From Octopus sinensis (lineage: Eukaryota), in the NCBI RefSeq assembly GCF_006345805.1, contig NW_021832228.1:62001-126000 (forward strand): a DNA stretch of 64,000 bases, written 5' to 3'. Shown here in pieces: positions 10,948-47,042 of this stretch (its first letter is position 1; each line of letters opens with the position of its first letter). Below the pieces are notes generated by a model, which was given only the letters and a program-made list of their open reading frames with translations, had not been told where the DNA came from and searched no databases. The translations under genes and the position numbers were made by a program.

Positions 10948-12374
10948 ATGTCATTTTTTATAAAAAGCATTAGAAGATTTTCCAGTTATAAAGTACCTCA
11001 ACCAATTAATATTAATAGAATGTTTACATTGCTGGAGCTGTCCGGACCCCTATTGGAAGCTTAAATGGGAAAGTGAAAGAAGTTGATGCAGTAGAACTTT
11101 CCACAATAGCTGTAAACGCAGCTCTGAAACAGTCTAAATTGGAAGCCGCGGTTGTCGACGAATTATTTCTTGGAATAGTCAACGCTGCCGGACTTAAGCA
11201 ACACCCCTCAAAGCAAATTGCTCTCAAATCAGGAATGTCAGTGGAGACCCCAACAACCACCCTATCAAAGATGTGTGCATCAGGAATGAAGAGTATAATG
11301 CTTGGATGTCAAACAATCATGCTAAATCATCAGGCACTGTATAAATTGACATTTTCAGAGAGTTGTTGTGGCTGTTGGGACTGAGAGTATGACAAACACT
11401 CCATATTTTATAAAAAGATTTAATCCACCTTATGGAGGATTCAGTGCTTATGTAATAATAAAAATATGTCAGACTTAGGATCTACTTTTGGAAGGAGGAC
11501 TGCTGGATGCATACAGCGGAGAGCATATGGTAATTAGAATTTGTTATATTCTCTCCAAGGGAACCTGTACAGAGCATGTTATCTGTCGAAATAACATAAC
11601 ACGTGAACAACAAGACCAATATGGTATCCGTAGTTATAATCGAGCTTTATCAGCAACTAAAAATGGAAATTACATCTGTCGATATTTCAGGTTTATTAAA
11701 CTGGTTTCTACCAAGATTCTGAAAAATTTACTTCTGATGAAGAACCTTCCAGGGTAAACTTTGATAAAATTCCAAAACTCAAACCAGAATTCAAAAAAGG
11801 TGATTATTTTATTTCACTTCATTAGATGGAGAAACTATAACTCCGGCCAATGCTAGTAAGATCAGCGATGGCTCTGCTGCTTGTGTTTTAGTTTCAAAAG
11901 ATATTATTCGCGAACATAACTTGTCACCTCTCGCTCAGATTATCGGTATTCATTTTTTTTAGATAATATTAGGTTTTGCTGACTCTGGGGTCAATCCATC
12001 AGATTTTGCACTTTCTCCTATAATGGCCATTAGGAAAGTATTTTAACTGCTAAAATCTTTAGTTGTTGAAGAATCTCAGCTTAAATATAAAAGATGTGGC
12101 ACTGTGGGAGGTTAATGAAGCCTTTAGTGCAGTTCCTATACTTACACAAAATGAGTTTTCTATCGACAATGAAAAATTAAATGTGAATGGCGGAGCAGTC
12201 TCTCTTGGACATCCTGTAGGGTATTATTTTTGACTGACATTTCTAAGAATGTCCGGAACACGCATTACTAATCACTTGGAGCATCAGCTTGGAGATGGAC
12301 AGATTGGGGTTGCGGCGATTTGCAACGGAGGTGGGAGAGCATCAGCAATCTGCCTTCGTGGACTTGATCGTTAA
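10948..12374 (+). CDS. ACAT1: Mitochondrial acetyl-CoA acetyltransferase (thiolase, ACAT1-like) with one frameshifting deletion
   Basis: Presequence-like MSFFIKSIRRFSS; RTPIGS, KMCASGMK, TPANASKISDG, WEVNEAF, NGGAVSLGHPVG, ICNGGG; nine introns of 25-30 nt. Confidence 0.92.
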
Positions 12375-12411
12375 CTGATATTAATAATTTTCGTTATAAT
12401 CTCAAACCTTA

Positions 12412-12652
12412 TATATTTGCTCTAAACCTATTGAGTAAAGTATTACCTATAGATTGGTGGGAGTCGAACTCTTGTCGGTTGCCTTCTAAAACAATTTCAC
12501 TTTTCAAAAAAATTTTGAACCAGCCGGTTCAACAGGTGGAATAGAACGAATTTTTTCAAATTTTAGATTCGAATGTACAAATAGACTTGGAATTTAAAAA
12601 GTTGCCAAACTTGTCTCTATTTATTTTACTCAATAGGTTTAGAGCGAATATG
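12412..12652. mobile_element. Tc1/mariner-type MITE
   Basis: About 30-bp imperfect TIRs (tatatttgctctaaacctattgagtaaa / tttactcaataggtttagagcgaatatg) flanked by TA. Confidence 0.75.
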
Positions 12653-12849
12653 TATTGCTTAAATTTATTATTATTATAGACTTTCCGAACTACTCTACCA
12701 ACTCTTCTACACCAAGGCCTGATTATGATTAGAAAAAGGTTGACATCGGCAGACGATTTGAGCTCCTAAGGAAACTATCAAGAAACAGAAAGAATTGGAA
12801 ACAATTAACAAAACGTATCGATAAAACCAGGAATATTTTTGTAAACTAG

Positions 12850-13130
12850 TTAATTGCTCTGTTTAAGTTGATTCTTTAAAAATTAAAGTCAACGGGTAAC
12901 CTCTCTACTTGACCTATTACGCAATGCTCGATTAAATATTTTTCACAGACTTCGTAGATTAAAGAATTACAGAATTATTTACCATTGTCTGTTTGGAGGA
13001 TGATTAGTGGTCCGATATAATAAAAAACATTTTGGAATAGATTAGCTCTTTCTACCGCAGATTTCAACTTTGATAATTCGAATACACATTTTGAACAGGA
13101 ATCAACTATTACAAAAATCTTTAAATTAAT
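12850..13130 (-). mobile_element. rve integrase fragment (KRBA2/Ginger/Gypsy-like)
   Basis: FYYIGPLIILQTDNGK*F..QVER. Confidence 0.65.
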
Positions 13131-14863: not shown

Positions 14864-15861
14864 CAGGCATTCTCAACCTTTTTTTGTTCATCGCCCCCTT
14901 AGATATTTTGTCGCCCCCCTTTGAAATTTTATCGCCCCTTGTCCACCTACAATTTAAAAATTTTTGGCATTGTCCCTTATTGGTTGTTTTTGTACATAAC
15001 TCAAAAATCAAAATATAAAATTATAAATCAAATGTAAAAAATTGAATTTTTATTAAAAATTATTAGTGAGACCCTTGATATTGATGTTTACTCGCTAAAT
15101 ATTCTATGTCGGGTTTAATTCTGCTCAACTTTAGGCGTATATCGCCTCTATACACACTTCCAGTCTATTTTTTTCACATTGTGTATTATGATTGACAAAA
15201 CTAAATCCACTTTCAACCAAATAAGTGGTAGGGAATGTCAATAGTACATTACTCATTTCCTTCCATAAATTTGGAAATTTCATTTGTAGATCTTTTGATT
15301 GCCAAAATTTAGAGATACCATCCTGTTGAATCTGTGAATATATTCTTCATTATATTAAATTCAATTATCTCTTCTTGGATTGTTTCGTTCATATCTTCTG
15401 GCACACATGAAAACGGATCAATCATCCATGCTTCAAATTCCAAATCAAACAAATCTTGAATCTAAGAGATATATCCGCTTCTAGTTCCGTCAAATGTTGA
15501 CAATATGTCAAAATATTGTTTGACTAAAATATTTACTTATCTCAGATAGTTGTGAAATGTTTCCAAACTGATTTTAGAAAAATTATGTCGATAAAGCAAT
15601 AATTTTTTTTCAAATGTTTTCATTATTCTTTGCAATCAATCATGTTGACAAAATTTCCTTGAAGAAGAATAGTAATTTCATTAAATTTTGAGTCTAAATT
15701 ATTAGGCTTGCCATTAAAAATATTCTAATTAAACAATTTTTAATAAATATAAATTTTATTTTTTATTAAATATATTATCGCCCCCCTGTACAAAATTATC
15801 GCCCCCTTGTACAAAATTTTCGCCCCTAGGGGGGCGATTCGCCCCCGGTTGAGAACACCTG
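14864..15861 (-). mobile_element. Non-autonomous hAT (Charlie/Buster-like) element
   Basis: TIRs caggcattctcaacc / ggttgagaacacctg; 8-bp TSD tgctagag at 14856-14863 and 15862-15869; transposase C-terminus FPTTYLVESGFS; subterminal tcgccccc repeats. Confidence 0.93.
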
Positions 15862-18541: not shown

Positions 18542-20040
18542 ATGTCTTGGAATGGACGAGAAAGATCAGAGACAGTCAACTTGAGTATTGTGGAGTCAGT
18601 GGGATTAGATGTATATAATTTTAAAAGATATGAAGTAAAATGTGATTAATTTATCAGATGTTAAAATCAATGACTTGTCATTATATTGTGGATGATTATC
18701 TGGGGAGGGGTACGTTTGGGCAAATAGTAGTAGCCTGGAAACATGAAACTAATCGTCGAGTTGCAATCAAAGTTTTGAAGAAAAATCCGACTCATACACG
18801 TCAAGGACTATTCGAGGTTGGTCATAAATAATATTATAGATATCCGTGCTTAAATGTATCAACAATGCTATGTCGGATTTGGGGCAAGACCACATAATTC
18901 TATTTCTCGACCATTTTGAACACGCAGGCCACGTTTTTATTGTGTTTGAATTGCTTTCAATCAATTTGTATGATTTCATGAGAATTAATGCATTTTCTCC
19001 AATTTCAATTTACGGCATTCGGGCAATTACCTTTCAAGTAATTTAATATCTGACAAATCAAGGTTCTTAAAGCATTAATAAAGCTTTCATACCTCGGGAT
19101 TATCCACACTGATTTAAAGCCGGAGAATATCATGCTGGTTAACCACCAAGAATATCCATTCCATATTAAAGTTATTGACTTTGGCTCTGCGGTATATTGT
19201 AATCGAATAAGCGACTCCTTTTACTTACAATCGAGACATTACCGGTCATTCTGAGTGATTATGATGTAGAGCACCCGAGGTTATTTTGGGTTGTGAGTAT
19301 GGATGTCTCATCGATATGTGGTCTCTCGGCTGTATTATGGCAGAATTGGTCACTGGTTGGTCTATATTCCCCGGAGCCAACCAGTATGAGCAGATTCGTT
19401 ATATATGTTCTGCATTGGGTATTCCCAACGACGCAATGCTCATGTCTGGAAAGAAGGTGCCTCTGTTTTTTGAGAAAACGACTTACTGGAAGCTCAAGGT
19501 ATAAATATGGGCATTTCAATCTTTCAGAATGCTTCTAAATTTACTGAGGCTACCGGAAAAACGGTCAAAAATCCGTCGCGATATTCCGTGAAAGATTTGA
19601 ACAACATTGCCATAAAAGTGGACTTTAATGCTCATATTTAGATTCTAAAATCGTCCCAAAGTGTTCCAAATTTGGATTCATATCAAATCTATCAGCAGGA
19701 TGTTAATAATTTCATGTTTTCGCTGAGGAAAATGCTCGCAGTGGACCCGAATGAGCGAGTAGCTGCTTGTGATGCAGTGTATCTACCATTTTGGGACTTT
19801 ACTTCCTATTTGCCTCAGGATTCCAATTGGTATTCATATTTGTGAGTGGATAGGGTGGCCTATAATGTTCGAATAATGTACTCCTCCTATTCCTGGAAAT
19901 ATTCTCATGTCCCTCTACACTTTAATTTACTCCCCACTCAGTCTTCAAAAAGGAGTGTATCCTTTCCTTTCAGTTTTATTGGTCGTTATTAATCTTATAA
20001 GATCGTCAAATGAGCCCCAGTATATGTGTTCCGGCTGTGA
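18542..20040 (+). CDS. HIPK: HIPK-type (DYRK/CMGC) protein kinase, essentially kinase domain only
   Basis: LGRGTFGQIV, VAIKVLK, FELLSINLYDF, IIHTDLKPENIML, IKVIDFGSA, YLQSRHYRAPE, DMWSLGC; introns of 23-27 nt. Confidence 0.9.
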
Positions 20041-20379: not shown

Positions 20380-21415
20380 TCTCACTAAAAACTCAGTTTC
20401 TCCCAACTTGATGAGTGTCCTGAGTCAATCTTCTCTCCCTTTTCTCACAATGGAGGACAAATTACTCATTATTAAGTTTCTGTGTGAGCATTGTGAGTAT
20501 TATGTGACTTATCGGCTGATTCCTGCTTATACCGAGTTTTGAGAATGTGGAAAGTTTGTTTCTTTTAGAATTTATGGCAGAGCTAACAATCTGATGAATT
20601 GTCACCAATGTTGTGCTGCATTCCACTCCGAATGTGTTTCCAGTTTGCCTGATTCTGGCCAAGTTTGGGTTTGTTTTGCCTACAGGAGTTTTATGGTATG
20701 AATTGAGTTCTCAGATGTAGATTGTGGGGGTTCATGATTTGGTTTTGAAAGAATCTTTACTGGGGAGAGATAGAAATGGGAGGAAGTACTACTATATGGC
20801 CAGGAGAGTTGTGATGTAAGCACATTCTTTCATTTGTAGTCGTTCGAATTCCTCGGATGACGTGTATTATTCGACCAAACTACAACTTAAACGACTAATT
20901 GAGTGTCTAAATGTCGAAATTGAGTGTGAGAGGAGTTTGGTTGATCTTCTGGGCAAAAATTCGGATATTTCTCGTGCTTTCTCCGTAACTGAGACCCTGA
21001 CAGACGAGGGTTCAAAAATGTTCAAAAAACTTAGTTATATTCAACAGTATTTTTGTCGAAATTAATATTTCAGCTAATGATACAAGCAGATCGGCTATTT
21101 CTATAAAAATAAATCCTAAAAATGTATGATATATAATATATATTGTAGATATCTCTCTCGAATATAAAAGGGGATAAAAGTATGCGGTTATCTTATGATG
21201 TCTTAGCCAATGAGCTGCTGGGTGGGAAGGATGTGAACAATCTTCTACTCAGAAAGAGTGACGGCACCAGAGTGAACGTCAAAGTCCTCAAAATTGTACT
21301 CCCACGAATGAATGTGCCTCATTCCAGTCCGACAGTGATCAAAGGTAAAGACAAATTATTTCCTTCAGCTTCCCCGTCGAATTCAGAGAGGAGTGATATT
21401 GGAGAGTTGTATGTT
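20380..21415 (+). pseudogene. BPTF: BPTF/NURF301 internal fragment (WHIM1, PHD, WSD)
   Basis: LPFLTMEDKLLIIKFLC; LMNCHQCCAAFHSECV; LGRDRNGRKYYYMARR..YYSTKLQLKRLIECL; both ends missing. Confidence 0.75.
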
Positions 21416-21419
21416 CTTG

Positions 21420-27934: not shown

Positions 27935-28110
27935 AATGTTGTTACGGCAATCGCCCTGGAGACGGCTGGAGCCGCTGGAAAGGAGACTGACTAGTTCCTC
28001 AACGAGGTCGGGAAGTCCATCGGGAGGAGGCTTAAGGATCCAAGAGAGGGCTTCCGGTTCCGCCAGCACATCGGTCTGGCCATCGTTCGCGGCAACGCAC
28101 ACTGGGGTTG
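27935..28110 (+). mobile_element. CRE-like 3' fragment
   Basis: TAIALETAGAAG..WFRQHIGLAIVRGNA. Confidence 0.7.
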
Positions 28111-28799
28111 GCACATAACTTTCACACAAATTAAAAGTTCCTAAGTCACCAATTATTGACCAAACATTTGAAAATTTTTGGAATTTTTTATTAAAAATAT
28201 TTTCCTCATTATCGGATCCATCAAACTTTCTAGAAGGCTAATTTCACTAGGAGTTGAGAGTTTTTAGTATTTTTATTTATATGCTTTTGCAATGCCATGG
28301 ATCACCACAAAGCTTGTGCAGCATTGGAAACAATAAAAGTTATTAGTTCGGTCCATTTCCCTCTATCTTGGGCGACGTCCCGTAACAAGTCAAAATCGTT
28401 CCCGTTTTTTAAAATTTTCCCTACACTCTAAGGTCTCTGTCCAAAGCGTCCATGAAAGCGAGAGCTGTCAGTTTAAAAATAGTCCTCCATAGCGGTGTTT
28501 ACCAGTGCCTTCAAACTTATTCTTGAGATGTGTCCAAATAGCCTCCATCAGCATGCTGTAATTTCGAAAGAGAATGGTTTGCTTCAATATCGAGTCTAGG
28601 AGAGACTACTCTCTGCCAACGTCACCCACTCACTCCCACTTTGGAGGAGGAATATTCTTGGACTGCTTCTTGGCTACATTTCCCGGCTTGTGTTCTGTCG
28701 GCGGGGAAATGACCATTTTAGGCCACACCGGGGCGGACAGATTTTCTGGGCGAAAGAGACTTTCGCCTTCCTTACCAGTAAATGGTAAAAATGATCGTT

Positions 28800-30019: not shown

Positions 30020-30920
30020 GATCATCTCCTTGAGTGTGGCTCGGTTAAAGGGGTCACTTTTTGTTGTGGGTCAGTCCTTGCAAACAGACATACGTGAGGC
30101 AATACGAGTCTGAATAACTTTGGATTGGACATTGCAAGCACATCCGAGGCCTACGGACATCAGACGGAAACAAGTCACGTTTCCTGTCATACAAACTGAC
30201 TACTCCCTCCACGACTACTCAAAGTATTTCAAATTCGTCTCAGAATACTCTGCTTCCTGGACAGATAGCCCGAATACTAATTTGTCTCCATCATCTACTA
30301 TATCACAACAAGTGGACCTTTGACGAGAACTTTGGGACCACTCCGTGTTATTCCAAGTCGTGAGGCGACGTAGAAGGCAGTATGAAGACTGTCTCCAGCG
30401 ATCAACATAACCTAAGGAATAGTACACAATACGCACACGACTGCTGTAACTGGCCAACAGTGCTGAATAAATCAGACTTTATCTCGGACGAAAAATTGGC
30501 GAATCCACAAAACTCCAACTGGACTAAAAGGTCTTTTTCGGGACATTTATCACAAAGACAGTACCCAGTGGCTAACAGTCGGTAACCGATGGACATGCTC
30601 TGTTTCACAATCTTGTTATAATCGGGGAGAATAGAGACAAACTATGGTTAGACAGGACGCATACACAATCCTTGAGTGCTTCAGGGACACCTTTGACGGT
30701 CATGAAATATTTCGTCACGTTGGAATTTCGTGGAATAAAACGACCAATAATCGTCATTCTACGCAAAGTCTTGCTGTAAGAATATACGATTACGTCGATA
30801 TTGATTGTAGGCTTGTCTCTTCATTTTAGACTGTCCTTCTGTCTGGAATGTCATCAATTTGTGTTGTGGAGGGGAAGACGTGGGGGTTACTGTGATCTCC
30901 CATTTCATAGACGACGATCA
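30020..30920 (-). pseudogene. P5A-type ATPase (ATP13A1/Spf1-like) internal fragment
   Basis: SKTLRRMTII..VKGVPEAL; GYRLLATGY..LEFCGF; MLIAGDSLHTAFYVA; LPHVCLFARTDPQQK; DKTGT and GDGTND absent. Confidence 0.8.
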
Positions 30921-31389
30921 TAGAATGGGCAAAATTATGCTACTTATCCACAAAGTGTTCTCCAAGTCAGACGACATTGCCCACCCTCTTAATATTCTGT
31001 GGCTGTATTCTCTCGCCATCAACTTTGATGCCGACCTTCTCGTGGGTCTAGTCCATATTGATAACTTTGGAAGTGATGAATTGGCCTCTTTCCTTATTTT
31101 TGTACTCAAAGCTTTAAACATGATTATTCAAGTCGACTTGTTTTCACTGATTGCCGAGATTGTAGCAATGGATATTACTCGAAACGAACTAATCGGAAGG
31201 TCAGATTTGTGAGAGATCAAGTGGACTGCATTATCATTTGCCACTTATCTCTTGCAATGTCACCAACTCCTCCATAGAAAAGGAGCCATTCAAATTGCTG
31301 CCCGCTTTTTGAAATCTGTTCACGTCTTTAAAAACAGCACATTTTTACAATAAACAAATCGCAAACTTTAAAAAAACAGTAAAATGACC

Positions 31390-31593
31390 GATTTTATATT
31401 CATACCAATCGCTCTGGAGACATCGGGCGTCGCAGGGCCTCTAACCTCGGCCTTCATCAGCGACATCGGGAGGAAATTGGCCCACAGGACGAAAGAGCCA
31501 CGCGAGGTTTCGTGGCTATTGCAGCGGATATTCATCGCCATTCTCCGCGGCAACACGCATGCGGTACTTTCCGCAGGAGGGTGCGTGCTTTAG
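31390..31593 (+). mobile_element. CRE-like 3' fragment
   Basis: FIPIALETSGVAGP..LLQRIFIAILRGN. Confidence 0.8.
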
Positions 31594-31879
31594 CCCCCCC
31601 GGAGTTTTCCCTCTATACTTTCCTAACTTAATTTGTTTTCTCGTTAAAAAAATGACCGATTAGTGAATGATTAGCGTGTTTAATAAGTTAATTGGCTTGA
31701 TTGGGTGTCCTAATGACAATCTAGGAATGACACGGACTAATAACCGTCTTTACATCAGTGTAGTTGGCAAGACCATAGGAACCCAACTCCCTTCCCTGTC
31801 CCGACTATTTGATTCTTCCAAAGAGGGCTGCCGCGTCGAGTGCAGCATAACAATTAACACTAAGTTGATTACTGTTTGA

Positions 31880-34800
31880 TGCCAGTCTTATTTGCAGAGA
31901 ATAATCCACAGAGATCTCAAACCCGACAACATTTTTCTGGAAAATCAAATGAGAGTCAAGATTGGTGATTTTTGACTGGCAATCCGCGGAGACGTTGAAA
32001 AGACAAATGTAGGCTCATTCCTAGTCTATTCCAGGTTGAGCAAATAGACCAAGACACGCCGTTGGAGTATTCTGAGAAAGCAAAGCCTTCCGGAGCTGTG
32101 GGAACTGCTTTGTAAATTGCTCCTGAAATTCTGAGCACCTCAAAATATACTAACGTTTTACATTTTGACTAATTTGGCCAGAAAGTGGACATGTACAGTC
32201 TCGGACTGATTCTGTTCGAAATGTCGTACTTGCCCATGACCACAAAATGCGAAAAAATAAATATTTTTACAAAACTCAGATTGCCTCAAGTCGAATTCCC
32301 AGCAGACTTTGGTTCATCTGAGGACGATAAGCAAATTTGGCTATAACGGGTCATTGGCAGCACAAGATAATAAGCTCACTGCTCGATCATGATCCTTCTA
32401 TGAAACATTCCGTTGGGAATCTTCTGTCTTCTAAATTGATTACCCCTCCTTTGGTGTCTGAGTCACAAGCATTGGAAATGATCAAAGTGGCTATTGCCTT
32501 GCACGACAATACGTCGGCACAACTTAAGAATGTCCTCTTTGAACAAGAACAAAGACTGTCGTTGGAAGGTTTGGGATCATTCTACCATTCTGTTGATAAT
32601 TTAACTGTTTGTTTGTAAATTCTTAATTTAGAGTTCTCTCGGGCATCATTTTGATTCAGAACTGCGATCTTTCATTCTTAAACGAATAAAACAAGTGTTC
32701 AAAACTCACAGTGGCTTGGAGCTCCGGACTCCTTTAATCATGCCGGTCTGCGAGGCAGAATTTCCCGGATTTGGAAGTTATGTAAAATTCTTGGACAGAG
32801 AAAGCACAGTTGTCGCTCTACCTTCTAATCTACGTGTGTCATTTGCTCGCTATGTCGTTCGACAGCGAATAACATTTATGCGACGTTCGTGTGTTGACAC
32901 AGTCTACTTCCTCATGGCCAAGGATGACACGATAAAGAAGAGAAGCCGTGACTCCTCTTTCCATCCGAAACAAATGACGGAATGTGCTTTTGACATTGTT
33001 TCCGATTTACCAAACCCGTTTTATAATGCTGAATTACTTGTCATGAATCAGCAGATTGTCAATTCCTGTGGCCTTGGGGGCTGTTCTGAAAAATTGACTA
33101 TCCTTATTTTAAAATAAACCACGCGGATATTTTGGCAGGAATTTTGAACCACTTCAACATTCCCAGTGAAGAGCATTCGTCGTCTATTTTTTGGTTGGGA
33201 AAGCCAGAACAAGTTGACGAGCCCAGTTGTTTCTCATTCAATCCCAAACGCCTTTTAATTTATTCATTCTCCAAGGAACAAAAAAATCAATTGAAAAAAC
33301 TCCTATCGTTGGAATTTTCAGATTTGGACGAGGCCAAAACATATTTTGACAATTTATTATAGCCCGGCCATGTCAGGGAGTGCTTGCTGATTCTTAGGGG
33401 CTGGAGGATGCTGTCCAAGGGTTTGATAATTTGCGGGAGATTCTCCGTCTTGCTGATTTTATGGGCTTTAAAACGAAAGTATAAATTTTTTATAAATCAG
33501 TTTTATGTGAGCATGACTGTGTGTTTCAATCTGGATATGTATTCGGGGATGATGTTTGAGTTGTATGTACGACGAGTTCCCTGGCAGTGTCCATCTGTCA
33601 AATCTCAACAGAAAGGAACAGTCAGGAAAAATCCCCAGCATATTATTCTCATTGAAGAAGCGTGTTCATTTGAAGGGAGATATGACCGAATGGTCTAGTT
33701 TAAGCAAATTATGAATAGATTGAGTTTTACAGGCAAAAGGAGGACGACGAAACCAGTTTTTTGCCAGTTCAATATGCTGTGGGCTTTGGGTTTATTCTTG
33801 ATCGAGTTGCCGACATTGTGCATTCCCATCGAATACAGAATGTTCAAAATAAAACGAATTGTTGTAGAGTAATGCACTCAATTGGCTTTCCCCGTCGGTT
33901 GGAGATGTGCTCGTGACTTACCAATTGGGATCAGCCAGGGAACATGTCGATAAAATGTTTTGTTCAATTTTGTCACGTTTCTGGCAGAGATCAGTCAGTG
34001 CTATTCTTGCTGTCTCCAATAAAGTTGGCTGACTGTATAATTGTGCAGAGCAATGAAGAAATGGCCGAGATGTGTCACGAACATAAGATAGGTCACTTAC
34101 TGGTGGTGAAGGATGTCTCGGACTACTGCAATGTATATTCCTGGGTTATTCCAGGTTTGGAAATGTTATCCAACTGTCTCTCAGTACAAACGATTCGAGG
34201 TGACCCAGGCCATTCAGACCATTGTGTCGTACAGAAATAAAAATAAGTTTGTTTTTTGTTTCATTCCCAGGGAAAACGAATGTAAAACACCATTCGACAT
34301 TTTAGGAGTGACGGATTTGTCTTCGGTTTTTTTCTAATTTCTACACGATTTTAGCACAAACACGAGGCGTCCTTGGTCAAGTATATTTACTACGATGTTG
34401 ACGAACACAAAAATGAGAGTCGAATCGAGCAGACCGTCAAAACAAGAATAAGGGGGGCACTTTCGAAACTTAATTCATCGCAGCGAATATACATTGTGGT
34501 CACTGATTTGATGACCAAAGAAAACTTGAAGTCCTTTCATTTTTATTTGGATGGGGTTGGTTTTGTCGTATTATGTAGTCCAATCCGACGGAGAATCCCA
34601 GAACTGTACTATCGACGTTCCTACAATCACTGTAAGTGTATCTAGTGCAGAGGTTTCCAAATGGGGAGGCGCGCCTCCCTAGGGAGGCGTTGACTCGTGT
34701 CAAGGGAGGCGCGAAAAGTATTTCAGAAACATTTTTTAGAAAATTATATCTATGTAAAAAACGTGACTATATTCCGATAATAAGAGTTATTAATTTAAAA

Positions 34801-35775
34801 ATTATATTTTTTCAAAAATTTATTTAATTTATTAGACAATTAATAATTTTAACACATGAATAAATTCTTGAGTGGCTGCAAAAGAAAATTCACGAATAAT
34901 AAAGATTTTGACGATGGTTCAAAAAATCAAAATGATTGGAATATAATCAATACCACTCCAAAGACAAGAAAATACTTTCCATCTTACTTATTGTTAGGAT
35001 TCACACGTATCTTTGTTGATTCTATGGAAAAACCCCTCTGTTGCTTTGCCTCAAAACACTTGCAGCAGATAGTATGAGGCCATGCAAATTAAGAAGACAT
35101 TTTGAAACGATGCATTCTGAACATGTCCATAAGTCTGAAGAATTTTTTAAAAGAAAATTAGAAGAGTTTGATAACCAAACGAAATCGTTAAAAAAAACTT
35201 GTTTCTGTCTCTTCAAATGCTTTACTAGCATCGTACAAGTTTCTTACAGGATTGCAAAAAATGAAACCGCACAATATCGGAGAAACTCTAGTTTTGCCAG
35301 CAGCTATCGATATGGTTGAAGCAACTTCATATTTATGCGAAACTGGATTTTCTGCACTAGCTGCAATTAAATCTAAATATCGAACTCGTTTAGTAGTGAC
35401 TAATGAGCTAAGAGTAGCACTCTCTGCGATGACACCAAGATTTGAAAAACTTTGCGCCAAGATGGAAAAAAAAAATTATTCTCATTAACTTTTTGTTTTA
35501 AAAGTGTTTTGTTAAAAAATTAATTTTTTTTTTTTAAAAAATTGTATTATTATTATGAATATAAAGGGAGGCGCAAGATTGTACTTTTCTCTAAGGGAGG
35601 CGCGTAAAAAAAAGCTTGGAAACCTGATCTAGTGATTGGCGTAGTGATGATAGCGTTGGCAAACATGTTATGAGGTTGGCGGACGTTGTGCAGGATTACA
35701 GGAATGAGGAATGCAGTCCTGTTGTAATTGTATGGATATAAAGCAAATCACTACGTACTTTTCATTTCTCCGTAA
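31880..35775 (+). pseudogene. GCN2: GCN2 (EIF2AK4), 5'-truncated with in-frame stops
   Basis: IIHRDLKPDNIFL, KIGDF*LA, VGTAL*IAPE, KVDMYSLG; HisRS-like region LPSNLRVSFARYV, ECAFDIV, GRYD; C-terminus YGYKANHY. Confidence 0.88.
34648..35626 (+). mobile_element. Internally deleted hAT (Buster/ZBED5-like) element inside the last GCN2 intron
   Basis: TIRs cagaggtttccaa / ttggaaacctg; TSD atctagtg at 34640-34647 and 35627-35634; BED finger CLKTLAADSMRPCKLRRH fused to SYLCETGFSAL. Confidence 0.93.
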
Positions 35776-35954: not shown

Positions 35955-38900
35955 ATGGAAGATTTATGTAATTTTTTAATATAAAATATAATAGTAAAGA
36001 AATATCCAATATATTTCCATACAAAAGCTTTAATTCTATTCAAAATCAAATTTTCAGGGATGTTTAATCAAAACAATTTATCGTTTGTTCTGAGAGCTCC
36101 CACAGGCTCAGGGAAAACCGTTGCATTCGAGTTAGCAATCATTCGTCTGTTCGAAAATTCCATAAATACTAAGGAAATTAAAGTCGTTTACAGTTTGCTA
36201 AGCAATAAAACTCACTTCCAGTTGCACCCCTCAAAAGCCTTTGCAGAGAAAGAACCTTAGACTGGAAGAAATTTACTTTGATTAATTTAAGCTGCTGCGA
36301 GATAACAGGAGACTCAGAAGAAGAAAAAATCTCAGAATTGAATTCCTCTCAAATAATAATTTCAACTCCAGTCAATGATTTATTTTATAAAATAGGAAAA
36401 ACTTGAAGGAATTACTAAAAGAAAAGATTTGACATATTTTTCAGAGAGGTAGATTTAGTTCTCATCGACGAAGTTAAAAATAAATATCGAATTTTCCAGA
36501 TTCACACTATAAGTGAAGACAACAGAGGCGCAGTGCTCGAGGTGGTTGTCACCAGATTGATGATGACTTTGAATATTCGATTTATTGCCGCCTCAGCCAC
36601 GATAGCTAACATAGACGATGTTTATATAGTTCTAGCAAGTATTTTAGATATTAAATTGGCTTTCCTGTAACAGCCCTAACGCAGGACATTATTGCAGGTA
36701 GTCTGATCATAAAATTGTCAGAATTGATGAAAATAGACGCATTGTTCCACTCAAAAAATAGTTTTGGGGTTTTCTCAAGGCTATCGATGTGCCGACTTTA
36801 AATTCGACATGTCCCTTAATTATAAGTTGGCAAATATCATTCAAAAATACTCCAATAATAAGCCAACTCTAATTGTAGTTGTATATTCTCATCTTCAAGT
36901 TCTGTTCGACTCGTAAAAGTACATTAATGGCTGCCAATGTGCTAATAAACGAATGTTTTGTCACCGATATGAATATTTTGTCTCAGCTTGACAATTTTTC
37001 CGACAAAATAAAGGACAAGGGATTAAAAAGTACATTTCAACCAAAATTTAACATTTTAAGGTTACGTCCGTAAGGGAATAGGCCTTCACCACGCAGGATT
37101 AGATTACAATGATCGCCTCTTGGTCGAAGAAATGTTCAAGTCTCGACTCTTGTCGATTCTTCGTTAATGAATAACCAACCATATTCTAGTTTGCACATCC
37201 AGTCTGTCCCAAGGAATCAACCTCCCAGCCCACTTGGTTATAATAAAGTCGACTTTCCATTACAACAATGGCCAAATAAGACCTTACGATGACTGGCAAT
37301 TGATGCAGATGATGGGTCTGGCAGGCAGGCCACAGTACGATGACTGTGCCACTGCGGTTATTATGACTAAGGAAAACTTGGTGGGAAAATATCAGAGGTT
37401 TGTAGACGAATCTCAGTCCTTGGAAAGTCGGTTGTTTAAATATAAGCAAAATGTAAGGTTGGGACAATGCTTAGCTGAGTATATCAACGTGGAAGTGACA
37501 ATCGAGACAATTACAAATTTAGACGAGTTATTTTCCTGGATTAGATCGACTTTTCTTTTCGTTCGTTGTGTAAAAATCTGAAATTTTATGGTAAAGAGCA
37601 AATATTCTTATTACAACAATTAGGCTTAGGTTTGAACTCAAGTTCTCCTGAAGAGATAAGAAACAATTTAATAAGTAGAAAAATATTTGAATTTTTATTT
37701 TTAGAAAATTATCAGAAAATTTTTGAAGAAATGAAACATGAAAATATAGTCCAAGTAGACAACCAAAAGATACAAAAAACAAGTAACTATAAAAATCTCA
37801 TTTCGAGGATTGGGAGTTCTAATGGCTAAATACAACGTAAGTTTTAAAACAATGAAACATCTCAAATTGTTGAAAAATGATAAAGAAAATCTTTTGATTC
37901 GTTTTCCCATCAAAAAAAGAATAAAAATTGCTTCAGATAAAATAAACTGGTGTTTTCAAATTTTAATCGCAGCGTTATCCAAGCTGTGTTGGGTTCTTTG
38001 AAAATTGAGGATTTCGGAATTATTCAAGACTCTTATAACCTTCTCCGCATCGGCGCAAGAATCAGTCGATGTGAGAATTGGGAGTTTATTTGTAGTCTTT
38101 TTTGAACTTGTTTATGAACAGAACGACGATTATGAGATGGTTAAAAACGCAGCAACTTTAGCTAAATGTCTACAAACTCATCTTTGGGAAAACTCTCCAT
38201 TTCTGAGCCGACAACTTCCCGGAATAGGTGTTAGATAAATTTGAGATAACCTCAAACTCAGGACAGACATTAGCTGTCCTGTTATCCCGTTGTGGTCTTA
38301 CGAATTTTACTAAGCTCGCCAGTTCTTCCGCAGAACACCTTGAAGCGGTCATTCTTTAAATAATGAATTAAATATAGATATTACCTTTCGGTAAGATCCT
38401 GCTGGACAAAATTAAGACTATTCCTAAATTAGAACTGAGTTTAGTCCAGGAGGTAGCTTGTCTAAATATTATAGCCACAAAATTTACATTCACTCCAAAT
38501 ACAGATTAAATGTTTAAATCCAAGCAATTTAAATACAGTGAATACCCCCAAATTCGCCATTCTTAAATTCGCCAATTCTTAGATTCGCCTTTTTTAAAAA
38601 AAAAATTCTAGTTTCAATGGAAATTCGCCAATTCTGAAATTCGCCAGAATTTTTGAAAATTTTTAAATAAAAAATACAAAAAATATTGATAAATAATACA
38701 TTTTTAAAAAAACATGGCGCAACGTGGGTTTAGTACTATACCATTTCCCATACTAAATGGGATTAACACCAAACTAAGTGGGAAAAAATCAAAATATAAA
38801 GAGACAACAAATGGGACTGGAATATTAATTTAATAAAAAAGCCTAATTCTTTGTTAAAATAAAATTAATTTTTTCAATTACGTCAATTTTGGCTATTTTC

Positions 38901-40336
38901 GATTCATTAAACAGTTCTACTCACATTCAAAAATTATTGATTATATTCTGAAATTCGCCATTTCTCAAATTCGCCGCAAAAAATGACGGAACCAAAAATG
39001 GCGAATTTGGGAGTATTCACTGTACGAGAAATTCATTTTTGTACATTTTGTTGATTGGGTCTAAACAGAATCGACTACTTTTCCGAAGAAGGATTACGTA
39101 ATTTAATTACAACCAGGACTGTTAGGGGAAGGACAATGCACGGAGAGGGGATGTGGAAATCCAATTTGTTTGTCAATGACATTGAATACTTTCCCTTGGA
39201 GATTAGCTTAATTTGTCTTCACATGGGTTTATCTACAACGGATATTTCTAGTTGGAATTGATATTTGTGTCTCCTACGTTTCACAACCAGAGACAACAAA
39301 CAAACAAGAAATCCCTCAAAGGCTAACACGGCCAATTGCAATTGTGGACGAAAATAAAAAGTCCGAAGACGCTGAAGAACTTAATTTTGATCTTGACTGT
39401 TCAATAGGCGACAGTATTCTTTCAGAAGAACCTATCAAAGACAATAATCAAACCAACAATAGAAATCGTCGTATAACAGATTATTTCTCTACATATTCTA
39501 AAACAAATTCTACAGAAACGACAAACAACGCTTCTTTTAAAAGCAAAAAATCAGTTTTCTCTGCTAAAAACAAGGAAAAACAGATCAAAGAACGTTCTAA
39601 CCAAGACTTAACAGACATTCCAGTTGGACAGTCTACAAAACTTGATGAAAGTAATAAAAACAGTCTCATTCTAAATAATATTACTGTGGAAAACGCGATC
39701 AACAAATCTGTCAAAAATATCAACGACTCAATCGTTATATCAAAACAAAAATATTCGAAAAAATCTTCAAATGACTTTTTGAATTTTATCAAACAAAACA
39801 AAAACTTATCAATTCAAACAGCGAGAGAAGAAAGTCTATCTCAACCAGACATGAGCGTCAATATTAAAGAAGCAAGTAATGGATTTGTAGATGCAAATTG
39901 TACAACCAATTCTCAATTGAATTCTAAAAATACAAACGACAATGATAAAAGACAGGAAAATGAGTCTTTTGATGAAATAGAATGCACAATGACTATCGAG
40001 CTAATAGACAGTAATAATATTGACAATTAAATTTCAAATAAAACTAAACCCACCCACAAACAAACTGAAAATGCCAATAAAAGCACCTGCATCCAAAGAA
40101 AAAATTTGATAATCGATAAATACAGTCAGAAAAAGAAAATTTTCCGGTCTCATCTTTTCGATATTAAAAAACCAAAAAATAATTTGAATCAGCAAGAGTC
40201 GCTTGAAATTCTTAGAGATGTTGACGATTTTACAAATAACAGAAAAGGAATGAGTCTTGAGATTTTGAGTCAAAATAAAAGAAAGATGCTCTCAATTAGC
40301 AGCGACAATAATAAGTTGATGGCTACGATTGACTAA
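35955..40336 (+). CDS. HFM1: Meiotic DExH helicase MER3/HFM1, disrupted
   Basis: APTGSGKT, YIAPLKSL, EITGD, LIDEIH, SATIAN, FKFDMSLNYKL, FCSTRK, GLHHAGL, GINLPAHLVIIKST, QMMGLAGRPQYD, Sec63 region; Asn/Lys-rich tail. Confidence 0.9.
38536..39022. mobile_element. pogo/Tigger-type MITE
   Basis: TIRs cagtgaatacccccaaattcgcca / tggcgaatttgggagtattcactg, TA on both sides, repeated aaattcgcca subterminal motifs. Confidence 0.92.
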
Positions 40337-40499: not shown

Positions 40500-40745
40500 T
40501 TCTTTAAGCAATTTAACAGAATCTTGCGTTTCTCTTGCAAATTTTTTAACAATTAAGGCTCAACTTTTTTCCAATAGAATTGCAACAATAAACTCATTCT
40601 TTTCCATGTTTGAAGTCGAAAATGTGATCATTTATTTCAATAAACGATTTTAGTGAAAATTTTTCTCCGAAAATTAATATAAATCTCAGATCATGTCACT
40701 TTTTAAATCTGTCAAGCCAGCGGATTGATGTTTTGAAAGTGTTAC
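40500..40745 (-). mobile_element. pogo transposase remnant
   Basis: FKTSIRWLDRFKK..FGEK and CCNSIGKKL. Confidence 0.6.
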
Positions 40746-41124
40746 AATCAATTTTGAAACCGTATTAAGAAAACTAGACGTTCAGGAAATGATTTTGAAT
40801 GTTTGAATGCTAAAGGAGCACAATACAATATGCAAGGAAAGCTTTCGGTGTTTGGATTTACTTGCATTGACCGTTAATTTTGGCCTGACTAAAAGTAGCA
40901 TATGATGTTTCTTCAACCAATTTAGTGAAGTTTGACGACCATTGCAAAAACGCACTGGAAGTTCTTGTTCCGTTTAAAAAAATTAAATATATAAATCTAG
41001 ATTTTCTTTCCTACTATATATAAAAAATAAGTACCGAAACGTTCGTAATGCTGAAAATAATTCTCAGAATTACAGGAATATGCTTTACCATGATTACAAA
41101 TGGAGGCATAACAAGGTGGTAAGG

Positions 41125-41760
41125 CAGCGTTTCTCAACTTTTTTTAATGGGGATCCCCAAAATGCTTTAAAAAAATTTCAGGGACCCCCTAGTATCTATT
41201 TTATCTTAATCAAGAATTAAATCAAATCTTGTTTATAAAAATTTATAAAAATTAAACTGCCTAATGGGACATTTGTTCTTGCATTTTAGAGATTAAAATA
41301 TCAATGTTCGGTTTTGTCTCAGATAGGGCAATACGTAAATCATCTTCTACTTTAAGACGATTTCGATACTTTGACTTTAAATATACAAGATGTCACATTG
41401 CCGTTTCACATAGATATTTTGTGTGAAATTGAATTAACTTCTCTAGGGCTATTGAACTGAGTAATGGATATACAGTTCTTAGTTCACACCAGAATTCCAT
41501 TAATGTACTGTTTTTAAACAATATCAAAGCACTTTGAGAGCTTTTTAATTCAATAAAAGATTTTTGAATTTTGAGATCGTCATCTACATTCACGAGAGAA
41601 AGGAAGGGATTTACAATCAAATCACAAACAGAATTTTGTGCAGGAAAATAATTTTCAAATTTCTCAACAAGATTTTCAAGATGTTTATCAATAATTTCCA
41701 ACAACGAATTATCGGGATCTGTATTTTGATAAAAAGTTTCAAAAAGAGGAAACATTTATA
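41125..41760 (-). mobile_element. hAT 3' end (one TIR plus dimerisation region)
   Basis: cagcgtttctcaac at 41125; LMEFWCELRTVYPLLSSIALEKLIQFHTKYLCE. Confidence 0.8.
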
Positions 41761-41799
41761 ATTCATTGAGTTAAATCAGTTTGTGAGAACTCGAAAGTG

Positions 41800-41920
41800 C
41801 ACATTAAAATGGATACCCCAAATACACACCTTGATTGTTGTCCAGCAAAATAAACCAGACATGTTGGTCTGTGATATGGAAACTGGGGAGATTGTGAAGG
41901 TAGGCATCAAATGTCTACAT
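41800..41920 (+). mobile_element. R4/NeSL-type restriction-like endonuclease fragment
   Basis: QQNKPDMLVCDMETGEI..VGI. Confidence 0.5.
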
Positions 41921-42657
41921 TCCATGTGCATGAGATGGACTGGTCACCAAATACTATAAGAATTAAGGCAGTAGGGTGTAGATCAGTCTCTGTAAGCATG
42001 AAAACTCAGTAATTAGTTGAGCAATTAAAAAGATTCTTGTATCAATAAAGCTTCGAACTCCCATAATCGTTAGTTAGTAGCTTCGAACTCCCTGACATGC
42101 AGGAAGCCGACTGGTAAACAAACCTCAACTGAGGCTATTATCAGTGAGGTTGATCTTCGGAATTTACTTGGATTCCTCATATCGTCGATGCTAAGAAGAA
42201 GACTTAAAAGAATTTTAAAAAATAAATGAAAACTTATTGTAACAGACAAAATTCGAAATATCAATGTGATGCCAATAAATTGACAAACTTAAAGAAGTTT
42301 GATACAGACAAAAAAATAACCAAAAACATGACAATTTATTTCCAGTGAATGTGGACATTTCTTAACCAAATGTACAAAACTAAAATGTTCTTATACTCAA
42401 TGTCCTTCCATACTCCTCACATGACACACCTGGGAGAAATTGGTTTGTTTATGCAAGTAGTCGCCCAGTCCCGTCTGTATGTTGTGTTGATCTGGCAAAC
42501 AAGATATTGGAACTGGGAATCACTATTGTCCAGAAAGGAACGTTTGATTCTCGCAAGTATGGCGTAGATTTGAAAAGGTTCACAATATAATTTGTATTTA
42601 AATTTTTAATAAAATTTAAAACTTCTAATAAAATAATTTTTGTTAGAAGTTGTTGTA

Positions 42658-43228
42658 ATGTCTTTTAACAAAAATGTTAATTATGTTAATTCAACTGCTG
42701 GTGCTGTTCCGTTTAAGAATAAAAAAGGTATTAATTCCAAAAATACATCTCATAGGTGAAATATCTATGCAGAAAGTAAAAGTCCAACGTTTCTTAGTAA
42801 AGGACGAAGGTTCCTTAATATTATTAATTCCTAGGACTAATTTCGATACAGTAGAAGATCACGAAGAGATCAAAGAGGAGAAAGTAAAAAATATCAACAC
42901 AATTCTTAATTTCATATCTACATATGCCATATCTGACATAAAAATCAAAAAAGAAATGGAAAATTTAGAGTTTGGTCCTCAATTTATTTATATGTTAGTC
43001 TAAATAAAGAAATCAAAAAAGAAAATGACTCTGAAGACGAAGATCACTTATATGAGAAGAGACAAATGCTGAGACAACAAATTTTGGACAAAAAACACGA
43101 ACCTGAACCGGAATCTGAGGAAGAAGACGAATTTGTCTCAGGTAGTCATTACTAAATAGCATATTTTGTTAGAATACGAGGAATATGAAGAAATTGTAGA
43201 AGAGGAGGTGAAACCTTTGCCCAAAGGC
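42658..43228 (+). pseudogene. MFAP1: MFAP1 (spliceosomal B-complex protein) 5' part, truncated
   Basis: NSTAGAVPFKNKK|GEISMQKVKVQRF followed by acidic exons; conserved C-terminal domain absent. Confidence 0.8.
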
Positions 43229-43420
43229 ATTTCCCATGATCGAAGAGAATTGTTGTCATGTCATCTGGGAGCTTTTAATCTCCGCGATCCAACCCGACTT
43301 GTTTTAGCACACTAGGGAATCCAGGAGATGTCAGGACGCGGGTCACTACATCATTACACTCAGAGTTGCCAGGGAATCGGCCAGAACTATGACGGCAAGA
43401 TAGTTGGTGTAGTCCTAAGG

Positions 43421-44468
43421 CAGGGGTGGCCAACCTTTTCCACAAAAAATATAATTTTAAGACGTGAAATTACGAAATCATTTTTAAGCATTTCCGACGA
43501 GACATGGAAGTCGGTGATTTTTACCGATGAATGGTCTTTTGATATTTTTAATATCAATAAGCATCAAATAGTGTATAGAAAAAATGGTTCGGCATACAAA
43601 AAATGCAATATTGTCCCAACTGTAAAATTCGGTGGTGGAAAAATAATGGTCTGGAGCAGTTTCTCGTGTAACGGAGTCCGTAATCTTGTTTTTATTGACG
43701 GAATTCTTAATAGTGCAAAATATACTAATATTTTATCCAATAATATATTCGAATGTGCCAAAAAATTCGGGATAGGCTCATTTATTTTACTACAGGATAA
43801 TGGACCTTGCCACAGATCTAAAATGGTACAAGATAAAAAACATTATTTTATTTCAATGGCCGGCTCAATCACCGGATCTAAACCCGATAGAACATCTATT
43901 GGCAGAAATGAAGAGAGAATTATCAAAAAATGTAGTCAAAAACAAAAATGAGCTAAAGGACAAATTAACAGAAATATGAAATAATATATCACCAGAAGTA
44001 TTGAAAAAACTAGTAATGTCTATGAAAAATAGATGTTACAAAATTTTCAGTGCAAATGGTAGACATATTAACTACTAAATGACTTGTTTTTATTTTTGTC
44101 CGGTTTTACGTGTCTTAAGTAAATTGAAATTCTGCTTTAAATATAAGTTCTATAATAGCATAATTAATAATTATTACACAATTATTATTATTAAGTAAAA
44201 ATATTAGGCGTAAGTTTTTGATTTTTCATATTTGATTAATAAAATCATCAAAAATGGCTTGTCCGGTTTTCAGTGACGAGGGGTGTATATATTTTAATAA
44301 CAATTTTTTATTTTATACTCAAAAGTTGATGGGATTTTTAACATTGTAATTTTCTTACGATTACATAAAATTCTGGTCCTGAGAGCACAAACATGTCCTC
44401 TATTAAGATTTTATATATCGAAGGCGATCAACCAAGAAATGCGCCGATCGACTGGTTGGCCACCCCTG
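43421..44468. mobile_element. hAT-ended element carrying the 3' half of a Tc1 element
   Basis: Perfect TIRs caggggtggccaacc; TSD tcctaagg at 43413-43420 and 44469-44476; internal WKSVIFTDE, TVKFGGGKIMVW, LLQDN, WPAQSPDLNPIEHLL. Confidence 0.92.
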
Positions 44469-44714
44469 TCCTAAGGTGTCAATCGTCTGACCACAGGGCA
44501 TTAATGCTCACGGCAGATGTTTAACTCTAAGTGCAGAGAAACTACAATTCGGAAGAATTCGTCGTCCAGCAACGTCCAGACTGACGCCACTGATGCCCCA
44601 AATTTTGAGATTCGATGGCGTCGTGATTTGACGCTGGATAAAAGCGTGTTGAAGGAACAAAGAATATCGGAAAAATGATGTAAATCGCAACTGATGTTTA
44701 TGATCTAAGATTCA

Positions 44715-44920
44715 TAAGAATTGATTTCGAGATAATGGCGTCCAATGAAGGGATTAAGATTTTCAAGTCCTTAAAAACGGATTCAGATATACCGCCTATG
44801 GTGGAGTCATCTAGTACTAAACGTTGAATTCGGATGATACATTCCTGGCAACATTATCAACGGCAAAAGCAACAAGAAGAGGCCTCAGTAAGTCACCTTG
44901 CTCTACTCCATTACCTGATT
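44715..44920 (-). mobile_element. CRE-like RT core fragment
   Basis: GVEQGDLLRPLL..SSEFNV*YLDDSTIGG. Confidence 0.75.
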
Positions 44921-45179
44921 ACCAGCAATGAGAAAGATGGGCTGCCTGTAGCCAAAGGCGATGAGAAGTGAGATTATTCAATGTTGAAGACACACTCATT
45001 TGGTGATAAATTTCACTTATTCTTTTGTCCAGTTCAAGCGTTCTTTCCCGCGGTTCAACTCTGTTTCTATAAGAAACAATCATCACTTTTCAAGGCAAGT
45101 TTCAAGTCACCGATAAAGAAAGGTGATTTATCGAAAATAAGGTGCTCTGATTTTCTTGCCTCATAAAGACCTTTGGGAA

Positions 45180-47042
45180 GTTATGAGATAATAAACGGCT
45201 CAATCGCCTAAAGTCTATTTCCCCAAAGACCTTCATATTGTAAGAAGAATCTCTTGGAACAGCGGTCATGGTGGTGGAGTGTACACAAGGAACGAGCATT
45301 GAGCCACCGTGATGTCCCCGATGTCATCCAAATGTAGCAATACGAGCTGCTTCTGTGCACGAAGATGCATATTTTCAATTTCAACCTCAATCTTGGCAAT
45401 ACCCAAATTTAATGCCCATCGGCGGCTCTGCCCACAATAAGGACACAATCCGACTGAGTTATGCACCTTTGAGTCACACAGTGTTTGTATAGTCCGCCTG
45501 ATAGACCACCATTTTGAACGCATCTTCCAGTTTACCAAGCCAATGACAGAGTTGATATTCATTCGAAGTGGTAGTTAATGGCACTTATACGTATCAAATG
45601 GATTTTTATTGAATTTTTGGAGTACGTCTGAACTGGTTAACCCCAAAATCGAATCATTGTATGACACAATTCAAGCACAAATGTATCAATGGAAACTTTT
45701 GAGGTCATTGGCACTACTGCCACAACGTGGATGTTATTCAGCGTAGTTAGTAGTCTATCTGGTCTGCCATATTTATTACACTCACTGGAGGCCTGGAAAA
45801 GATAAAAGTTCTTGTAACCCCCCAAAACCTTGTCTCCCAGAAGGGATAGCAGTTTTAGGACCTTGTAGGGGTACTTCAACTTTATGTAGTCCAATAGTCC
45901 AGTCGGGATCTCCACCAATGTCAAGTCCATGATTTACCGAAGACGGGATATATTTTATCCGCGTCGTCCCCCTGTCTGGTGAAATAACGGAAAACGAAGA
46001 CCTTTAGAGGGCTGTGGCCGCGTCCAAATGTGTCCAACTCAACCCATAGTCAATTAAACGCATAAACGGAGAACACGAGGCCAGAATGACACTCGGCATA
46101 TTCTCCGTCAGTCTTTGATGTCACAATTAGCAAACTTTGTGTAGTTTTGTTTGAAAATAACAGCAATGATGGACCCCGTTTGTGCTTTGATGGTAAAATG
46201 GGAGGAACATTTGGCCAACAAAGAGAGCTGTCCCACCAGGTTACCGTTCACGAGGGAGTATATGGGAATCTAATAACAAAACGCAACGCTGAATTGGACG
46301 GATAATCTATAAACGAAAATCCTCAAAAACATTGACAAATAATTCATGAGCGACTCTAAAGTAGTTTTGTAGGGAATAAAAGGCCGCGTTATGAAATCGG
46401 TGGAAAATTGACTCCAAAAGAAACCCTAGTCCCCGACTATTCCTCAAAAAAAGTATTAAACGACTCAATCGGCAGTCTTTTAATTACAAAAAACCAAAAC
46501 ATGTGAGTCCACCACAGCCACAGCAGATATCCCGTTATAATTCCGAGTCTCCGAAATATAAAACAAACACACTTAAACAGTAACACAGCTATAACATCTA
46601 ATAAACTGCATATACAATCCCCAGATTTGGCGTCCTTTAGGGAATAAATATTATCATTCTAGAATAACCAGAGTCGGGTACTTCATCGACTAAGTAGTTT
46701 TTCCGTGTGAATGTAACTAAAAGACATGATTGGGGTGATATACCGGCTGATTTGTTTTAGTTTATATCTAAGGTTGTCGCCCTTGTTGTCGGCTAGTCTA
46801 TTGACCTTGATTTAGATTGTGGAAATTACTCGTTTCATTACTTTCTTTCCGAATTTGATCATGTCAACAACACGTTTTCTTGTAATAACACTTTTTCTTG
46901 CATCCTGAGCGGCTGTGACGATTCTTACTAGTATTGGTATTTTTGGGAATATTGTAACGTTTTTTGCTTGTTGTATGAATTTGTAAACTGTCAGGAATAG
47001 GATTATTCCGGTTAATGATAACAACAAATATAAGGCATCCAT
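45180..47042 (-). pseudogene. Neuropathy target esterase (PNPLA6/7, Swiss cheese) pseudogene lacking the patatin domain
   Basis: N-terminal TM plus RKR..FGKKVMKRV; cNMP-domain pieces LVGQLSLL and SPFMRLIDYGLSW; IPTGLLDYIKLKYP; VVYQADY; TQRCITQSDCVLIVG; LRAQKQLVLLH; ends at DFRRLSRLL. Confidence 0.85.

Follow-up and report, generated by a model that had tools for sequence, protein, structure and literature searches.

The central part of the 64,000-nucleotide (nt) window analyzed here (that is, the whole stretch of DNA, numbered from its first letter), between positions 10,948 and 47,042, holds broken copies of conserved genes side by side with intact ones. Judged from sequence comparisons, the broken genes are duplicates that have died, and neither gene loss nor assembly error alone accounts for them; we lean toward reading the region as a segmental-duplicate mosaic lying in repeat-rich surroundings. 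A preliminary description of this DNA had named seven genes, ACAT1, BPTF, a P5-type ATPase, MFAP1, GCN2, MER3, and NTE, as a graveyard of decaying conserved genes. Using Pfam on 293 stop-free open reading frames (ORFs) and 44 more at a looser cutoff, homolog searches, and frameshift- and intron-aware alignment, we confirmed the identity of four of the seven (ACAT1, GCN2, MER3/HFM1, and NTE), all of them broken; matches for BPTF and the P5 ATPase were weak (Table 1). The P5 subtype is a label we presume for the ATPase fragment, and the MFAP1 name, for which profile and PDB searches gave no match, is likewise presumed, from its N-terminus. PDB searches with the P5 ATPase and MFAP1 pieces returned nothing relevant, one of them giving only bromodomain matches at E ~1.

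The four confirmed genes carry the kinds of lesions that had been described. ACAT1 has a single frameshifting deletion near 11,656–11,666, placed by spliced alignment, with about five residues gone; its introns measure 25–30 nt, one being a 25-nt GC-AG intron at 11,334–11,358. The GCN2 copy picks up only at residue 846 of the 1657 aa of a reference; its lesions are stops at 31,973 (at the DFG glycine) and 32,113, a probable third stop at 33,360, an AT donor at 32,335, and the loss of 1 nt near 33,113, which shifts the frame. MER3 has four frameshifts, each a one-base homopolymer change, together with a 35-residue in-frame deletion near 37,861, an in-frame stop at 40,028, and an Arg-to-Leu change in motif VI; an exon interrupted by a TA-flanked miniature inverted-repeat transposable element (MITE) reads open once the MITE is removed. 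The P-loop match of NTE comes in scattered pieces (profile positions 1–27, 86–104, and 136–163 of 223), and its patatin domain had no match in the ORFs scanned. In the BPTF fragment, downstream of which no bromodomain was found, the PHD finger has Tyr at two cysteine positions, judged by eye against the usual cysteine pattern. Tiny introns are kept throughout: 48 were modeled, with a median of 27 nt, 44 of them at 30 nt or less and the longest at 61 nt. As the introns are retained, a retrocopy origin is ruled out and the broken genes are genomic copies, in line with the earlier proposal. Three apparent features were discarded as alignment artifacts, namely a 20-nt GCN2 intron from the aligner, which contigs show to be 26 nt, a 21-nt MER3 intron plus frameshift at 37,749–37,824, remodeled as an intron and a deletion, and a frameshift produced by the aligner at the artificial MITE-free join of MER3.

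Public short-read contigs from four of seven listed runs (X1, X2, X3, and X5) were compared with positions 27,500–47,400, with ACAT1 and BPTF lying outside; all contig results are among the matches listed (32 of 2,221 pieces, 15 of 47 joints, and 12 of 247 indels). X1 is treated as DNA, and X2, X3, and X5, which have no RNA record, were read as spliced from gaps of the size of modeled introns (79 = 26 + 27 + 26; 25; 26). Less damaged counterparts appeared for all five named genes in this stretch, as longer spliced contigs for GCN2, MFAP1, NTE, and the P5 ATPase and as MITE-free DNA for MER3. Spliced contigs run past the 5′ end of the window's GCN2 by 2,094 nt (X3 record 17) and 1,059 nt (X2 record 8), and three contigs each hold one GCN2 letter absent from the window. 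In MFAP1, spliced contigs continue 802 and 585 nt beyond 43,139, and an X1 DNA contig departs from the window at 43,225. A spliced X3 contig for the P5 ATPase is 713 nt longer at the 5′ end and differs by 6.5%, the depth of the fragment being 268–337. In NTE, spliced contigs hold 21 and 22 letters for which the window has no equivalent. MER3 at 36.1–38.1 kb has almost no cover in X2, X3, and X5, and this was not used as evidence. Retained introns and disabling lesions, both features of unprocessed pseudogenes, were found, as was a third feature, a less damaged counterpart, for all five named genes in this stretch. We infer that the counterparts are intact, their reading frames not being visible in the contigs. 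The preliminary idea of a degenerating duplicate with live counterparts therefore held for five of its seven genes, those in the compared stretch, and neither of the adverse outcomes it had named beforehand, lesions absent from reads or a want of intact paralogs, came up in the public contigs of 27.5–47.4 kb.

Several observations on these same genes stand apart. A joint from 42,708 to 43,133 in X1 (depth 50) suggests another MFAP1 version with a 424-nt loss, and one from 37,717 to 39,945 (depth 77) suggests a MER3 version with a 2.2-kb loss, though the latter has a short side of 30 nt and such joints, like those from 31,798 to 31,910 and from 31,729 to 31,821, are not interpretable. Spliced-looking contigs cross the border between the P5 ATPase and an adjoining transcribed segment, X (29,820–31,857), apparently lacking a plus-strand 23-nt intron at 30,807–30,829, at a depth of 821 in X3 and below 10 in X2 and X5. 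They possibly represent a chimeric RNA that, depending on its strand, would be antisense to the dead ATPase.

We then considered whether the lesions are real. Target-site duplications (TSDs) were exact in all six mobile-element insertions checked, and because they are exact, the insertions are not sequencing errors. Five insertion-free joints occur in X1 DNA, at depths of 73–193. The element classes (hAT, retroposon) are our presumption from TSD length and ends, with no database match behind them. The MITE-free MER3 copy carries CA at the place of the window's TA target (38,533–39,024), and a C-to-T change may have created the insertion site. Frameshifts number zero in an intact HIPK-like kinase and in both copies of an ACS gene, against four in MER3 (Fisher p 0.014). 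In a tandem duplication holding ACS, eight one-base deletions in the first 3.9 kb of copy 2 set it apart from the other copy over 47.6–51.5 kb, and none of them lies in an exon (p ~2e-4 by homopolymer run count), with the caveat that error correction may just work less well in AT-rich spacers. With slips avoiding exons and intact genes free of frameshifts, long-read error is ruled out as the main cause; single one-base frameshifts may still be errors. Furthermore, X1 record 2 tracks the window's GCN2 for 916 nt with four differences and no gap at a depth of 126, against 19 differences in 542 nt for a spliced contig from the same sample, a near-match indicating that a window-like GCN2 copy is present in short-read data.

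The decay had been described as deletion-driven. Deletions are indeed present, but they are no more visible than TSD-flanked insertions, nonsense mutations, slips of a single base, and loss of GC. A or T in the window facing G or C in spliced contigs outnumbered the reverse at 170:79, 292:145, and 76:49, and at 355:278 for X1 DNA, in counts that include repeats and foreign matches. A-to-I editing was discarded as the cause, as transversions show the excess too in X2 and X3. The three GCN2 stops compare with 2.1–3.1 expected if all 52 differences from X2 were neutral, and this agreement with neutrality suggests that the GCN2 copy was already dead when it arose and did not fail gradually.

The architecture of the region points to copied blocks. 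A middle block at 31,885–43,225 (GCN2, MER3, a gene here called W, and MFAP1) ends inside a gene on either side, its left end falling within GCN2 and its right end within MFAP1. Its divergence from the other DNA copy is 1.14%, uniform over five pieces (homogeneity p 0.19), and its low-depth bins stand at 103–148. The flanks, comprising an ATR-like scrap, the P5 ATPase, and the transcribed segments X and Y, reach 268–878 at the places listed. Depth is a rough measure, with a unit of ~70 that is not tied to ploidy and a middle of about two units. Divergence from the spliced contigs was uneven in three of three runs (homogeneity p 2e-4, 3e-3, and 2e-7), based on 28 pieces from 29 rows and leaving out X2 record 11 (hAT) and both pieces of X1 record 1, which lie in a repeat; from X3, the flanks differ by 5–8% and the middle by ~4%. 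X1 contigs also join X directly to Y without a 12.7-kb middle, from 31,884 to 44,628 (depth 184) and from 31,761 to 44,595 (depth 62); the breakpoints of one join do not nest within those of the other. At the second joint, 26 filler letters and the preceding GT make, by eye, a 27-nt GT-AG intron, so that the middle block may split a single multi-copy gene to which both X and Y belong. An ESM Atlas search with the segment X protein gave only 0.84 with low recognition and no identity. The middle block is either an insertion into the window copy or a segment that sister copies have lost; each alternative needs more than two flank copies, for which a simple allele pair or a single homeolog pair is insufficient. 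Copy number and divergence thus change between neighboring pieces, as in a segmental mosaic.

From these data, we can postulate how the mosaic might have arisen. Gene-dense pieces of chromosome would have been copied as genomic DNA, with their introns, into a repeat-rich area, probably via break repair. GCN2 and MFAP1 would have been dead on arrival, since the block cuts both, and MER3 and gene W would have arrived whole. With live copies presumably persisting elsewhere, the pieces would then have decayed neutrally through transposons entering exons, stops, one-base slips, GC loss, and deletions fusing neighbors, and parts of the mosaic would have been copied again, giving several versions, some of them without the 12.7-kb middle. 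The live copies would presumably sit at other loci, and the setting would be heterochromatic. As to the route of repair, the junction of the tandem duplication interrupts an ARM-like gene as well as a transposase-like ORF, and it carries an 18-nt templated insert copied from nearby sequence. Templated inserts at junctions are described as a hallmark of polymerase-theta joining (PMC7368036), and such joining is a plausible engine for this copying and deletion.

The window has a GC content of 36.4% and reads in the standard code. In a comparison of 51 animal genomes, introns this small were confined to Dicyema japonicum and the myxobolid myxozoans (PMC13644364), the median intron of Dicyema sp. 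is 27 nt (PMC6543705), and D. japonicum has 36.7% GC, 49% repeats, and 1.24% heterozygosity (PMC6736024); Henneguya salminicola likewise has a median intron of 27 nt, at 29% GC (PMC13644364). Because intron size and GC resemble the published Dicyema figures, our best guess, by analogy, is a tiny-intron animal genome, most likely that of a dicyemid parasite. Protein homolog searches gave closest matches at 40–53% identity, with no near relative and no intact protein of the same organism, and a word-indexed search with a GCN2 exon gave no matches among 203 candidates.

Some of these observations weigh against a mosaic of segmental duplicates. The splicing of X2, X3, and X5 is read from gap sizes, and none of the listed contigs crosses a window-specific junction. 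The four mismatches of X1 record 2, whose positions the listing does not give, might be the stops themselves. GCN2 alone spans 1.2–6.1% divergence, so unevenness is partly local, and the middle block could be a deletion in the other copies rather than an insertion in the window's copy. Finally, 1.14% is close to the 1.24% given for D. japonicum (PMC6736024), and two depth units suit one diploid locus equally. These last points favor a decayed allelic haplotype, which we consider possible but doubtful: a homolog no longer recombining, by clonal lineage or inversion, would be losing genes covered by its intact counterpart, and the truncations would be deletions. The uniform divergence over five pieces, near dicyemid heterozygosity, the middle-block depth, the GC loss, and the asexual phase of dicyemids (PMC6736024) all fit, and the 37,717-to-39,945 joint may be a second lesion of the same MER3 copy, weakly so given its short side. 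The pattern expected of alleles, intact and broken versions at allelic distance and equal depth, would fit the middle but not the flanks, where ~4–12 depth units and two direct X–Y joins need copies beyond two alleles; open HIPK-like and ACS genes amid dead ones, and a stop count fitting neutrality since divergence began, also speak against it. The non-recombining haplotype proposed in the preliminary description is accordingly tenable for the middle block and not for its multi-copy flanks.

Fractionation of homeologs that arose by whole-genome duplication or through hybrid polyploidy fits worst of the three origins that had been proposed, and we regard it as very improbable. Many adjacent genes are hit, with intact ones between and introns retained, but the even divergence and two copies throughout that homeologs should show were not found: divergence was uneven in all three spliced runs, copy number varies several-fold along 20 kb, the flanks are multi-copy and joined without the 12.7-kb middle, and 1–3% divergence would demand a very recent event. 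The term "duplicat" also has no occurrences in the main text of PMC6736024, a weak point. A stronger claim about location, compatible with a mosaic, places it on a supernumerary or germline-limited chromosome (B-like, like a germline-restricted chromosome, or somatically eliminated), and this we hold to be quite unlikely. Truncated multi-copy paralogs, few intact genes, and satellite recall songbird germline-restricted chromosomes (bioRxiv 10.64898/2026.02.16.706238), the same anatomy occurs in B chromosomes (PMC6406668), and dicyemid chromatin diminution is reported (PMC6543705), yet the window-like GCN2 contig at depth 126 in X1 is not below the insertion-free contigs, and the host taxon is only inferred. 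Assembly artifact, through long-read indels and misjoins, or true gene loss with no live copy has a very small chance of being correct. MER3 frameshifts are all one-base homopolymer changes, tandem copy 2 has its eight such deletions, and X1 contains only 0.61 of the window's words; against this stand the exact TSDs in exon insertions, the exon-avoiding slips, the Fisher test, and the longer spliced counterparts.

Table 1. Features of the window, ordered by position
Feature	Position	Strand	Comment
48-bp satellite	4,322..7,909		75.6 copies, 95% match
ACAT1, mitochondrial-type thiolase, full length	10,948..12,375	+	Thiolase_N/C and spliced alignment
hAT-like element	14,864..15,861		8-bp TSD; second copy near 63,334
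HIPK-like kinase (presumed subfamily), intact control	18,659..19,992	+	Open for 394 codons after splicing 6 introns
BPTF/BAZ-type N-terminal fragment	20,381..21,062	+	WHIM1 E 0.012, PHD E 1.5e-4, WSD E 0.018/0.019, in that order
Retroposon-like insert	27,938..28,142		11-bp TSD; missing from X1 contig, depth 193
TPR/ATR-like scrap, multi-copy	29,414..29,820	+	M-HEAT_ATR E 0.13 (weak); depth 341–585 at listed places
P5-type ATPase (presumed subtype), internal fragment with stops and frameshifts	30,050..30,773	-	Cation_ATPase E 0.088 (weak)
Segment X, transcribed	30,830..31,884		Public contigs; divided by retroposon-like insert
Retroposon-like insert in segment X	31,394..31,648		13-bp TSD; X1 and X3 contigs without insert
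GCN2, 3′ half only	31,885..35,775	+	Kinase plus the domain after it on a single protein; best E 1.9e-27
hAT-like element in last GCN2 exon	34,648..35,626		8-bp TSD; X1 empty site, depth 79.5
MER3/HFM1, full span	35,955..40,336	+	46–52% identity to named HFM1
MITE inside MER3 exon	38,536..39,022		TA duplication; 1,113-nt X1 contig without MITE, depth 73.6
Gene W, start approximate	41,050..42,580	+	Divided by hAT-like remnant
hAT-like remnant in gene W	~41,125..41,821		Skipped by X1, X2, and X5 contigs
MFAP1-like 5′ part	42,658..43,225	+	Presumed identity
Segment Y, transcribed, multi-copy	43,226..44,980		Public contigs; divided by hAT-like element
hAT-like element in segment Y	43,421..44,468		8-bp TSD
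NTE, PNPLA6/7 type, internal deletions	45,243..47,042	-	NTE_Ploop E 3.8e-4, cNMP E 1.4e-3
Tandem duplication, 6.15 kb, 99.4% identical	47,593..59,887		Holds ACS and an ARM-like gene cut in copy 2
ACS	49,644..52,132	-	Open over 692 codons, provided that one GA-donor intron is removed by splicing

The broken zone reaches past the seven named genes. To the left of 10,948–47,042, a BET-like gene at 7,860–8,790 (minus strand), in which only the first bromodomain was found (Pfam E 1e-13), has a stop and a short ORF running into the 48-bp satellite, and is a probable further casualty. A multi-exon gene at 28,400–29,300 (minus strand) has stops and differs by 6.8% from a spliced X5 contig; other multi-exon genes are Tudor-like (E 0.014) at 22,500–23,570 (minus strand) or lie at 16,600–18,050 (minus strand). 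Apparently intact genes stand among the broken ones, as first described, with the HIPK-like kinase and ACS as examples. Stops in ACS were discarded, being produced by a 61-nt intron and by the GA-donor intron; the latter, 28 nt at 49,928–49,955 (minus strand) and at the same place in copy 2, is either a non-canonical intron or a lesion common to both copies. Substitutions between the tandem copies are nearly all at 52.2–52.7 kb, and ESM Atlas assigned the gene at 47.5–48.2 kb to a generic ARM/HEAT-like class. The sole match of an Rfam scan of the window was a U5 small nuclear RNA gene at 1,513–1,617 (minus strand, 66 bits), and a tRNA search gave none.

For annotation, these results matter because a broken copy of a conserved gene can pass for gene loss, the main currency of parasite genome-reduction studies. 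The region is also evidence that a lineage usually portrayed as nothing but reduced is actively duplicating, transposing, and deleting DNA. If depth were to differ between cell types or animals, it would offer a handle on chromatin diminution. More speculatively, and in our view unlikely, the region could be a supernumerary, germline-limited, or permanently heterozygous segment of a dicyemid-like parasite, carrying a standing family of dead essential-gene copies (GCN2, MER3, MFAP1, NTE, and BPTF) in several deletion versions. Were a germline-limited or permanent-heterozygote reading true, the junctions would serve as markers for the reported, unmapped dicyemid chromatin diminution and as a way to ask whether genome reduction runs by cycles of duplication and deletion.

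Segmental-duplication mosaics of unprocessed pseudogenes, of pericentromeric or subtelomeric type, are known from human genomics. The region resembles them in its adjacent intron-bearing gene fragments, its blocks that end within genes or have been copied again, and its nearby satellite, and differs in belonging to a compact, parasite-like genome with 27-nt introns and at least seven genes in 36 kb. Helitron or Pack-type gene capture likewise joins intron-bearing fragments of several genes without obvious TSDs, but here the fragments lie in both orientations and a whole 4.4-kb MER3 is included; no long inverted repeats bounding the block were found, and Helitron ends were not searched for. Degenerating non-recombining haplotypes (Y/W, supergene, or Meselson-type) share the exon transposons, GC loss, ~1% distance from an intact copy, and similar depth, whereas here the flanking pieces are multi-copy and rearranged. 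B chromosomes (PMC6406668) show segmental duplication followed by pseudogenization, repeat gain, and some intact genes, but here there is no sign of dispensability, inter-individual variation, or a chromosome of its own. The passerine germline-restricted chromosome (bioRxiv 10.64898/2026.02.16.706238) is satellite-rich with multi-copy truncated paralogs bearing stops and frameshifts, but no under-representation was seen here in the one DNA run. "Pseudogene" has no occurrences in the main text of PMC6736024, and we found no paper on such regions in dicyemids in a search whose coverage left most subscription papers and supplements outside. Collectively, the region is a cluster of unprocessed pseudogenes, a familiar type of locus, from a lineage that has received little study.

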